Source: Minisyncoccota bacterium (GTDB taxonomy: Bacteria; Patescibacteriota; Minisyncoccia; Phycocordibacterales; UBA9973). Taken from it: a stretch of 64,000 nt of DNA. Numbering within the stretch: position 1 is the first letter of the stretch; each line of letters starts with the position of its first letter. The stretch covers positions 4,641-68,640 of the forward strand of contig JBAZXM010000003.1 in the NCBI GenBank assembly GCA_041659845.1. The letters are read 5' to 3'. Below are positions 17,755 to 20,700 of this stretch, piece after piece. Position numbers and translations under genes: made by a program. The notes under the pieces were generated by a model. The model had not been told where the DNA came from, did no database searches, and saw nothing but the letters and a program-made list of their open reading frames with translations.

Positions 17755-20700
17755 TAATAGGAATCGAAAACATTAGTACTCCTCAGCTAAACGCATTACT
17801 GCGCGTACACTTAGAGCCTATCAACCTGATCATCTCTCAGGATTCTAATAACGATTCCTTATCTTGAAGCTGGCTTCCCTCTTAGATGCTTTCAGAGGTT
17901 ATCCATTCCCGACATAGCTACCGAGCAGTGCCGCGGGCGCGACAGCTCGTACACCAGAGGTCAGTTCACTCCGGTCCTCTCGTACTAGGAGCAACTCTTC
18001 TCAAGAATCAACGCCTGCAGTAGATAGGAGACCAACCTGTCTCACGCATCTATGTTTTACTTCCACTATCTTTGCGTTATGTTTTCAAAGTGACTAAACT
18101 TTAGAAACAAAATAGTAGAACCTCCATTACTGAAGGGATCGGACTGTAACTTGTTCTTAAAAAATAAGAACGCTGACATTCAGTCTCTACGGGCAGAAAT
18201 AAATTTCATTCCCTCGGTATTACCCCTCTTTCGAGTCGGGCTTCACCGATATAAGTCAGCTTCTCGATACATATTGCTATGTATCGCCGCCGTGGTGTGC
18301 ACTATACTTGTGCACTAAGTTGTATAACAGTGTTCAAAAAACATCCTCAACGGGTTCAAACGGGTTCAAGTCACGATATGCAACCTGCATGCAGAAAATT
18401 AAAAATAAATCTTTAATTTTCTGCATGCAAATCACAATCATAATCTGAACGGTTTGAACCCAGCTCGCGTAACTTTTTAATTGGCGAACAGCCAAACCCT
18501 TGGCACCTTCTCCAGCGCCAGGATAAGTTGAGCCGACATCGAGGTGCCGAACTCCGCCGTCGATATGAACTCTTAGGCGGAACTAGCCTGTTATCCCTAG
18601 AGTAGCTTCTATCCGTTAATCTTCGGCCGCATCTAATGCGAACCATCGGTTCACTAGGTTCTGCTTTCGCACCTGCTCGGGATGTACCCCTTACAGTCAA
18701 GCCAGCTTGTGCCCTTACACTATCGGCACGGTTTCCATTCGCGCCTAGCTGACCTTAATAAACTCCTCCGTTACTTTTTAGGAGGATACCGCCCCAGTAA
18801 AACTACCCACCAGATACTGTCTCTTCGCGTTTTTGCCGCGAGGGTTAGAGTAGGCCTCACAAAAGAATGGTATTTCACTGACGACTCCACACGATCCGAA
18901 AACAGTGCTTCAAAGTCTCCCATCTATGCTACGCAGTTAAAAAACATACTCAATATCAAGCTGCAGTAAAGCTTCTAGGGTCTTTTCGTCTATCTGCAGG
19001 TAACCGGCATCTTCACCGGTATTGTATTTTCACCGAGCTGTCCTCCGAGACAGTTCTCCAGTCATTACACCATTCGTGCGCGTCGGAACTTACCCGACAA
19101 GGTACTTCGCTACCTTAGGACCGTTATAGTTACGGCCGACATTCACCAGGGCTTATATCAATCAGCTTGAGATAATCGCACCATCGATATTTGACCTTCT
19201 GGCATTGGTCAGGTGTCACCCCCTATACATCCTCTTACGAGTTCGCAGGGAGCTGTGTTTTTGATAAACAGTTGCCAGAGATACTTTCGCTGCGGCCCAC
19301 GCATCACGCTATACGCGATGCACTGGGCAGAATCAAAAATAAATTTTAATTATGACTTTAATTTTCTTACTTACATTTGAATCGGCCAGCATCACATACA
19401 ATGTGATGCGTGGGCAAGCCTTATTCCGAAGTTACGGCTGCTTTTTTGCCGAGTTCCTTGGAGGACACTCACTCGTTCGTCTTGGTCTACTCGACCTGAT
19501 CACCTGTGTCGGTTTGCGGTACGGTTTCTATACTAATAAACTTAGAGATTTTTCTTGGAAGCGTGCTTTGTATGATTAGCAAGGGCGAACCCTCACCTTT
19601 ATGCTCTGCTTGGATATGTCTTGCGACCGCTTCCGGATTTTCCTAGAAGCTACCCTCACAGCACAAACAGAAATCCAATTATCTGCCATACATACTACCC
19701 TCCGTCCTCTCATCATTTAGTACAGAAGTCACGGAATATTAACCGTGTGTCCATCGCGTGCGGCTTTCGCCATTCCCTTAGGACCGACTAACCCTTCGCT
19801 GATTATCATTACGAAGGAAACCTTGATCTTTCGACGTGCGGGGTTCTCACCCGCATTGCGGTTACTTGTGCCAACATTCTTACTTCCAAACGCTCCAGCA
19901 TGGGTCACCCCTTTGCCTTCACCGCAGATTGGAATACTCTCCTACCGCTCACGGATTTCATCTAGCACATAAAGATAAATCTTTTTGCGCTAGATGAAAT
20001 CCGCGAACCCTCAGCTTCGGTACTATGCTTAGCCCCGATTATTTTCGGCGCGAGATCTCTTGATGAGTGAGCTGTTACGCTTTCTTTAAATGATGGCTGC
20101 TTCTAAGCCAACATCCTCATTGTCAGAGAAATCTTACATCCTTAGTTTGCACTCAGCATAGATTTAGGGACCTTAACTTGAGATCTGGGCTGTTTCCCTT
20201 TTGACTGATGGAGCTTCGCCCCCATAGTCTAACTGCCACGTAATTGGTCTCTGGTATTCGGAGTTTGATAGGTGTCGCGAGATTGCTCCCTGTCGAAACC
20301 TTCCAGTGCTCTACCCCCAGAGGGTACGCGTGACGCTAACCCTAAAGCTATTTCGGAGAGAACCAGCTATTACCAGGTTCGATTAGCTTTTCACTCCTTA
20401 CCACAGGTCATCCGATGACGTTGAACGATCAACCGGTTCGGTCCTCCAGCATGATTTCTCACACCTTCAACCTGCCCATGGCAAGCTCACCTGGCTTCGG
20501 GTCTTATGTGTACTACTTTTATTTCGCGCTATTAACACTCGGTTTCCCTGCGACTGCGTTGCATTGCAACTTAGCCAGCAGCACACATAAACTCGTTGGC
20601 TCATTCTTCAATAGGCACGCCGTGACGGGACGATAAATCGCCCGCTCCGACTCCTTGTAAGCATACAGTTTCAGGTCTATTTCACTCCCCTTCCGGGGTT

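Follow-up and report, generated by a model that had tools for sequence, protein, structure and literature searches.

The 64-kb window analysed here (the whole stretch of 64,000 nucleotides from contig JBAZXM010000003.1) carries on its reverse strand a 23S rRNA gene interrupted by 402 nucleotides (nt), which are inserted exactly after the position equivalent to U2593 of Escherichia coli 23S rRNA (Table 1). Judging by its closest matches, the host is a metagenome-assembled genome (MAG) of Candidatus Paceibacterota, in the Candidate Phyla Radiation (CPR, or Patescibacteria): the 23S gene is 84-89% identical to Paceibacteria/Nomurabacteria MAG 23S genes, the most similar among the matches listed, and the SecD protein encoded in the window is 100% identical to a protein of a Candidatus Paceibacterota bacterium MAG, the next SecD matches being 66-72% identical and, where they carry a source name, labelled Paceibacterota, Patescibacteria, Minisyncoccia, Parcubacteria or, in one case, just 'bacterium'. 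A full-length Rfam match, a match to our own covariance model (R1) and covariation in 53 homologues lead us to conclude that the insertion is very probably a group I intron without an open reading frame (ORF).

The insertion was placed by MAFFT alignment of the window 23S with E. coli rrlB, to which it is 68.6% identical over aligned columns, and the Rfam large-subunit (LSU) alignment has an insert of ~406 nt separating model positions 2620 and 2625. Its flanks are GCUGGGUUCAAACCGU upstream and CGUGAGACAGGUUGG downstream, and the junctions read GCUGGGUUCAAACCGU / UCAGAUUAUG...AUAGAUG / CGUGAGACAGG, with U as the last nt of the 5′ exon and G as the last nt of the insert. An earlier sequence-only reading of this DNA had proposed an insertion of about 400 nt at 18050-18452, at or within about 3 nt of the LSU-2593 site used by I-CreI. 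The insertion is real, the flanks are as it gave them and the site is exactly after 2593, but its coordinates were off by 3-4 nt at each end (18047..18448). Position 2593 lies in the 5′ strand of helix 93, adjoining the peptidyl-transferase centre. The same reading had found no ORF in the insert, and this agrees with our search: ORFs lying mainly within it reach only 53-55 aa on either strand, none of homing-endonuclease size, and the longest ORF overlapping it (95 aa) lies almost wholly in the 5′ exon.

A 23S gene of about 3.5 kb had been ascribed to the insertion together with expansion hairpins. The length is correct, but it is mainly because of the intron, as all other length differences from E. 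coli amount to 8-54 nt each. Lineage-specific insertions relative to E. coli (numbering prefixed Ec) include +54 nt after Ec298 (20888..20941), +40 nt after Ec1180 (19952..19991) and +45 nt after Ec1767 (19278..19322), all on the reverse strand, and there is a 16-nt deletion at Ec2794-2809. The Ec1180 site falls in the helix-45 region, where RNase III intervening sequences (IVSs) occur in other bacteria. None of these small insertions resembled the intron model in an R1 scan of the window.

Table 1. Positions, in window coordinates, of the interrupted 23S rRNA gene and of the predicted elements of its insertion. Nt numbers count from the first nt of the insertion; MFE, minimum free energy.
Feature	Coordinates	Strand	Remarks
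23S rRNA gene hosting the intron	17753..21254	-	3502 nt; Rfam LSU_rRNA_bacteria 2348 bits, model positions 1-2925
Probable group I intron (L2593)	18047..18448	-	402 nt; exactly after E. coli 23S U2593; starts UCAGAUUAUG, ends AUAGAUG
Exon strand of helix A, GGGUUCAAAC	18452..18461	-	5′ exon nt -13..-4, Ec2581-2590
5′ exon CCGU, P1 exon strand	18449..18452	-	Ec2590-2593; U2593 (18449) is the 5′ splice-site nt
Large structured P1-loop (L1) insert	18295..18448	-	nt 1-154; MFE fold of exon plus 5′ part of intron
Perfect hairpin, distal L1 stem tip	18387..18428	-	nt 21-62; 17-bp stem, 8-nt loop, 42 nt
Intron strand of helix A, GUUUGAACCC	18352..18361	-	nt 88-97; 10-bp perfect complement of GGGUUCAAAC
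Small L1 hairpin GUGCAC-AAGUAUA-GUGCAC	18297..18315	-	nt 134-152; MFE fold; aligned by Rfam to its P2
Internal guide sequence CACGGCGG	18287..18294	-	nt 155-162; directly 5′ of P2; invariant in 48/53
P2 hairpin	18265..18286	-	nt 163-184; GCAA tetraloop; 9/9 pairs with compensatory changes, 94% of cells paired
P3 5′ strand GCUGAC	18255..18260	-	nt 189-194; 6/6 P3 pairs covary, 98% paired
P4-P5-P6 domain	18191..18249	-	nt 200-258; covariation alignment, R1 and Rfam alignments
P7 5′ strand G(A)GACUG	18181..18187	-	nt 262-268, with A263 bulged; follows J6/7 GUA; RF00028 consensus AGACUA
P3 3′ strand GUCAGC	18172..18177	-	nt 272-277
P8 hairpin	18153..18171	-	nt 278-296; 5/5 pairs covary
P7 3′ strand CAGUCC	18141..18146	-	nt 303-308; preceded by J8/7 AAGUUA; Rfam consensus AUAGUC
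J7/9 AUC, P9.0 5′ strand	18137..18139	-	nt 310-312; pairs with GAU before terminal G
P9 hairpin	18121..18136	-	nt 313-328; GUAA tetraloop; 5/6 pairs covary, 99.7% paired
P9.1-type extension hairpin	18063..18120	-	nt 329-386; MFE fold; contains TAGTCA
P9.0 3′ strand GAU plus omegaG402	18047..18050	-	nt 399-401 plus G402 (18047), which marks the 3′ splice site
3′ exon CGUG, P10 exon strand	18043..18046	-	Ec2594-2597; complementary to guide CACG

Core, predicted splice sites and family of the insert

Rfam Intron_gpI (RF00028) aligned over its full length (model 1-253) to 18319..18120(-), with 30.7 bits and an E-value of 5.7e-6 in the 601 nt searched. The covariance model R1 was built from 18 compact family members at L2593, with the window left out, and on both strands of the 64-kb window it gave a single, full-length match at 18294..18113(-), with 158.2 bits and a rough E-value of 1.3e-43.

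A scan of GTDB species-representative genomes for G + CGTGAGACAGKTYGGTCYC, the terminal G directly before C2594, returned at least 120 loci, mostly CPR MAGs but also Acidimicrobiaceae, Omnitrophota, Armatimonadota, Chloroflexota and a few Gammaproteobacteria. The comparison with relatives that the sequence-only reading had suggested finds 250-1030 nt inserted after U2593 in nearly all loci listed, although the scan pattern retrieves exclusively genes with a G before C2594. The core motifs of the window intron (CACGGCGG, UAUAUCGGUG, AAUACCGAGGGAA, CCCGUAGAGACU and AGUCC) occur in at least about 80 of the loci. Family counts "of 53" refer throughout to the 53 strongest R1 matches among the matches listed, window included, with the 5′ flank recovered in 48; the window intron accordingly has at least 52 homologues in public MAGs, most of them CPR and at least one (L119) labelled Gammaproteobacteria. 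The closest homologue, and the sole near relative, among the matches listed comes from another Ca. Paceibacterota locus (L004), which has the same ends and architecture and shows compensatory changes in the hairpins. Some loci with the core motifs at this site, L111 for example, have two extra hairpins between P7 and the 3′ strand of P3; L111 falls outside the 53 strong matches. The window 23S holds one group I core, whereas in many related CPR loci (for example L005, L052, L060, L061 and L085) R1 finds two to five additional cores at other sites of the same 23S gene.

The predicted structure (P2, P3, P4, P5, P6, P8 and P9, with P7 as a pseudoknot; 47 pairs) was scored on the 53-sequence alignment. 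Standard pairs fill 97.1% of cells, against 35-40% in slid controls with partners offset by 1-3 columns; compensatory changes occur in 36 of the 47 pairs, and none of 500 shuffles reached any of the observed measures. Plain MAFFT/RNAalifold recovered compensatory change in 31 of 44 pairs. Elements P3-P4-P5-P6-P7-P8-P9 follow one another in the canonical group I order, with the P3/P7 pseudoknot. P4 is formed by UCGGUG/UACCGA, P5 by CCC..GGG with the tip CUC-GAAA-GAG, and P6 by GGG..CCC, and J7/3 is only 3 nt long (AAU), without P7.1/P7.2. P7 pairs G(A)GACUG with CAGUCC and is aligned, J8/7 (AAGUUA) included, with AGACUA...AAGAUAUAGUC of the RF00028 consensus; it is 100% paired in the 53 sequences and covaries at two pairs, the terminal one changing from A-U to G-C (34 vs 19). 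P7 therefore has the make-up predicted of the guanosine-binding helix, with a bulged A and conserved flanking J6/7 and J8/7. RNAalifold also paired GGC of CACGGCGG with GUC of AGUCC, which we rejected because it conflicts with the covarying P7 and with the role of CACGGCGG as a guide.

The sequence-only reading had called the insertion group-I-intron-like, had pointed to AGACTG and TAGTCA as P7-like strands and to a perfect 40-nt hairpin at the start of the insert, and had allowed that an Intron_gpI search might detect no core. A P3-P9 core with covariation in 53 homologues is detectable, and the group I assignment is borne out by this core with its P3/P7 pseudoknot, by the guide for P1 and P10, by P9.0 with the terminal G and by covariation across the family; the Rfam match is full length but lies below threshold. 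AGACUG is indeed the 5′ strand of P7, but its partner is CAGUCC, and TAGTCA belongs to the P9.1 extension. Similarly, the hairpin is real (42 nt, 17 bp) but does not open the intron, as it occupies nt 21-62.

The splice-site elements fit the same scheme. Apart from a U2593·G wobble, the putative guide CACGGCGG is reverse-complementary to the ligated junction CCGU/CGUG: its 3′ half, GCGG, pairs with the 5′ exon CCGU as P1, including the hallmark G159·U2593 wobble, and its 5′ half, CACG, pairs with the 3′ exon CGUG as P10. The 5′ exon ends in ACCGU in all 48 family members with a recovered 5′ flank. Other intron classes at L2593, found in Acidimicrobiaceae, Omnitrophota and Armatimonadota MAGs, have the guide 7-20 nt from the 5′ splice site; in genomes with the exon AACGU such classes carry the guide GCGU(U/C), and across intron classes exon A/C at Ec2590 covaries with guide U/G. 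For P9.0, all three pairs are kept in 39 of the 53 members, the types being AUC/GAU (15), AUG/CAU (13), UUC/GAA (4) and UUG/CAA (3); in 2000 shuffles the total observed was never attained. A more proximal guide candidate, GUGAUUUG (nt 14-21; GUGGUUUG in L004), could pair with CAAACCGU through a U·G wobble; it was dropped since, among the matches listed, the window and L004 alone contain it and it lies inside the long L1 stem, whereas the invariant CACGGCGG adjoins P2.

The P1-loop insert and its pairing with the exon

The guide lies 155 nt from the 5′ splice site of the window intron (family range 60-261), and the P1 loop between them is filled by a large structured insert made up of helix B, a further stem, the distal hairpin, an exon-complementary strand and two small hairpins. 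In the MFE fold with the exon, one long hairpin runs from base to tip through helix A, a CGU/ACCC internal loop, helix B, the further stem and the distal hairpin. Helix A joins exon and intron (GGGUUCAAAC with GUUUGAACCC); at least 9 of its 10 pairs are kept in 47 of 48 family members, and the pairing tracks exon variants: Ec2588 forms G-C, A-U or G·U, and Ec2586 forms C-G or U-A. In helix B, formed by intron +1..+6 with nt 80-85, pairing is seen in 248 of 282 cells (172±6 in shuffles), and position +2 shows the four Watson-Crick pair types plus G·U. From these alignments, the putative exon clamp is a feature of the whole family and not of the window intron alone. A limited literature search found no published description of a covarying exon-binding helix in a P1 loop.

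U2593 stands opposite an A in the L1 hairpin, rather than a G, in about three quarters of members. We considered a non-canonical U-A splice-site pair on this ground and rejected it, as the canonical guide explains the site; the hairpin pairing at U2593 is a second structure, competing or flanking. The distal perfect hairpin has a homologue in L004 that differs in sequence and is still paired, and this compensatory change, together with the lack of a second copy in the window, led us to reject a dispersed palindromic or mobile element. The two copies of UUGAACCCGU (nt 80-99) are conserved in L004, so we rejected a recent tandem duplication; they mirror two similar 5′-strand segments, the exon GGGUUCAAAC and the junction CGU/UCAG. 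Hairpins around nt 134-152 vary among members in number and sequence, and L004 has a shorter hairpin, with compensatory changes, at the P9.1 position.

As an exon clamp, helix A would stack on the short P1 of 3-4 bp; just as possibly, it would act as a mask or switch. That it functions as a clamp or switch at all, either by keeping the 5′ exon in place for so minimal a P1 or by masking the splice site until core folding is complete, is a tentative proposal that may well be wrong. As a mask, it could couple splicing to 50S assembly, for example, and a target recognition of ~14 nt could permit endonuclease-free spread by reverse splicing into 23S rRNA. Extended guide sequences have been engineered into trans-splicing group I ribozymes; the exon-binding helix, if functional, would be their natural counterpart and would offer a handle on intron folding in the nascent ribosome.

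Alternative readings and proposed splicing

All the structural hallmarks of a group I intron are present, and self-splicing is predicted. The intron is also well formed, and its rank of 7th among 53 by R1 score against the family model gives no sign of decay. Several points nevertheless weigh against a self-splicing intron. The RF00028 score of 30.7 bits falls below the curated gathering threshold of 50 bits, which is why a default gathering scan of the window did not list the intron, although this is a curation threshold and no structural feature. R1 is a home-made model whose E-values are rough, and the 53-sequence alignment (A4) was fitted to the model, favouring the structure, a concern limited by the slid controls and by the independent MAFFT/RNAalifold result. 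As both exons and the guide are invariant in the family, covariation in P1 and P10 comes only from the other intron classes at the site. In the MFE fold, G2592 and U2593 pair with C85 and A84 in the long hairpin rather than with the guide, and formation of P1 would need a local rearrangement in which the weak pairs G2592-C and U2593-A open. Finally, we infer splicing, as opposed to excision without ligation.

Excision without ligation is what would be expected of a degenerate group I relic that no longer self-splices and is removed by host RNases (for example by RNase III, with the 5′ hairpin of ~45 bp as its substrate), which would leave the 23S rRNA fragmented but still functional, as with bacterial IVSs. 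We consider this improbable. A relic would suit an insert that has no homing endonuclease or maturase ORF, that scores below the Rfam threshold and whose 5′ part folds as a very long, nearly perfect duplex including the splice site, but every element of the catalytic core is intact (158 bits, with its high rank against the family model), and the guide sequence, P9.0 and the terminal G are all preserved. Known IVS sites of 23S rRNA include helices 9, 25 and 45, and an RNase III IVS is a simple stem-loop replacing a helix tip at such a site, whereas the window has a multi-helix ribozyme core in helix 93. RNase III-fragmented 23S rRNA is known in bacteria with reduced genomes, according to PMC11270868, but fragmentation between 2593 and 2594 would sever helix 93 at the peptidyl-transferase centre, and this is not among the known IVS sites (23IS2, 23IS4; PMC11270868).

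Still less credible is a metagenome assembly artefact in which the intron of another population was joined into the 23S gene of this MAG. The window does come from a metagenome-assembled genome, and rRNA regions are prone to chimeric assembly; however, both junctions are seamless, GUUUGAACCC matches the gene's own exon variant GGGUUCAAAC and not the commoner CAGAC variant, and the nearest 23S relatives among the matches listed (L052 and L072) also carry family introns at 2593.

An expansion segment retained in mature 23S rRNA, for which the several small lineage-specific expansions of 8-54 nt in the same gene might speak, can practically be set aside, given a complete group I core with covariation and splice-site elements and given that 402 nt between U2593 and C2594 would disrupt helix 93, which lies next to A2602 and is, to our knowledge, universally conserved. 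Such insertions are moreover reported to be removed from transcripts (Brown et al., as cited in PMC11270868). We rate all of these alternatives low because the core and splice-site elements are intact, the exon-binding strand matches its own exon and the site lies inside helix 93.

For the group I intron we propose the following course, modelled on the group I paradigm. The intron would be transcribed as part of the pre-23S rRNA, and an exogenous guanosine bound in P7 would attack the phosphate after U2593. G402, placed by P9.0, would next dock in the same P7 site, and the 3′-OH of U2593, once freed, would attack after G402, whereby CCGU would be ligated to CGUG and helix 93 restored; the spliced product would read ...AAACCGU-CGUGAGAC.... 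The clamp would keep the 5′ exon close to a P1 of only 3-4 bp, and the guide would gain access as the weak internal loop CGU/ACCC opens. As it lacks a homing endonuclease gene, the intron is presumably inherited vertically, and any movement would need an endonuclease in trans or reverse splicing. For annotation, 18448..18047 needs to be removed before mature rRNA length, secondary-structure models, rRNA phylogeny or primer design are considered.

Neighbouring genes and comparison with known introns

A 5S rRNA gene (17410..17304) lies 3′ of the 23S gene with a tRNA-like gene (17656..17581) between them, both found by Rfam, and the Rfam scan found no 16S rRNA gene in the 64-kb window; the 23S-tRNA-5S cluster is not linked to 16S. 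The tRNA-like gene, on the reverse strand (17581..17656), matches Rfam tRNA with 53.3 bits and has an anticodon stem CAACC/GGUUG around an 8-nt loop, UUCCCAUG; ARAGORN labels it 'tRNA-???' and reads its anticodon as the four bases ccca. Its discriminator U and C35C36 point to a tRNA of Gly(CCC) type whose loop is expanded, or else to a processing signal that resembles a tRNA. In 11 related loci ARAGORN detected no counterpart; several of these loci contain little sequence 3′ of the 23S gene. Near the rRNA cluster, two long ORFs on the reverse strand (27240..30242, 1000 aa, and 31148..34885, 1245 aa) have no Pfam match or only a weak one to PG_binding_1, and a 259-aa ORF adjoining the cluster (16426..17205, reverse strand) has no Pfam match, in keeping with the large number of proteins that lack annotation in CPR genomes.

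Wider searches added no members to the family. A metagenome scan for CTTGAACCCGTTTGAACCC gave five unrelated matches and no new relative of the intron, and a phage collection searched by blastn in distant mode gave no match to the intron core. Repeats of GGGTTCAAACGGGTTCAG type form arrays in two metagenome contigs fetched through CTTGAACCCGTTTGAACCC, L125 (~1250-1450) and L126 (reverse strand, ~2470-2670; in locus coordinates, about 4760-4960); neither contig is rRNA or related to the intron.

L2593 is also the homing site of Cr.LSU, found in the chloroplast 23S gene of Chlamydomonas reinhardtii. Cr.LSU is a self-splicing group I intron that is organellar, belongs to subgroup IA3 and carries the gene for I-CreI; the window intron shares its insertion site after U2593. 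In bacteria, group I introns also occupy other 23S sites, such as L1931 in Thermotoga, L1917 and L1951 in Coxiella, and in Simkania (PMC1995217, PMC11270868). These are likewise group I introns near the peptidyl-transferase region of a bacterial 23S rRNA, but at other sites, and those of Thermotoga and Coxiella L1951 carry LAGLIDADG genes (PMC1995217), unlike the window intron.

Closer in position are the L2593 introns of thermophilic cyanobacteria, namely Synechococcus sp. C9, S. lividus C1 and Thermosynechococcus elongatus (Haugen et al. 2007, PMC1995217), which share with the window intron the bacterial 23S gene, the site and the group I type. However, they are 744-748 nt long, with a gene for a LAGLIDADG endonuclease of the single-motif type and a P7.1/P7.2 extension of ~65 nt (PMC1995217), whereas the window intron has 402 nt, no ORF and AAU alone between P7 and the 3′ strand of P3. 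It thus lacks both the P7.1/P7.2 elements and the LAGLIDADG ORF that characterize the IA-type, endonuclease-encoding L2593 introns; the LAGLIDADG endonucleases tabulated for bacterial rRNA introns have 157-189 aa (PMC1995217), far above the 53-55 aa of the longest ORFs mainly inside the window insert.

The nearest known systems are those of the CPR itself. Group I introns at 2593 in CPR 23S genes were first noted by Brown et al. 2015, as cited in PMC11270868. Tsurumaki et al. 2024 (PMC11270868) found insertions in 82% of CPR 23S genes, with 45% of the insertions classed as group I by Rfam, counted 222 ORF-less group I insertions in 23S genes and listed 2593 as a recurrent insertion site, '23IS12'. 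The window intron has the features of 23IS12, namely a CPR host and a group I insertion, no shorter than 100 nt, at E. coli 2593, and it shares host clade, site, group I architecture and ORF-less type with the CPR 23IS12 introns. Group I introns at 2593 are already known to be common in the CPR, and the finding is correct but ordinary: it adds a case to the group I introns whose abundance in CPR rRNA genes has been documented, here an ORF-less copy in which every predicted catalytic element is intact, with a longer P1-loop insert and a P9.1 extension but no difference of kind.

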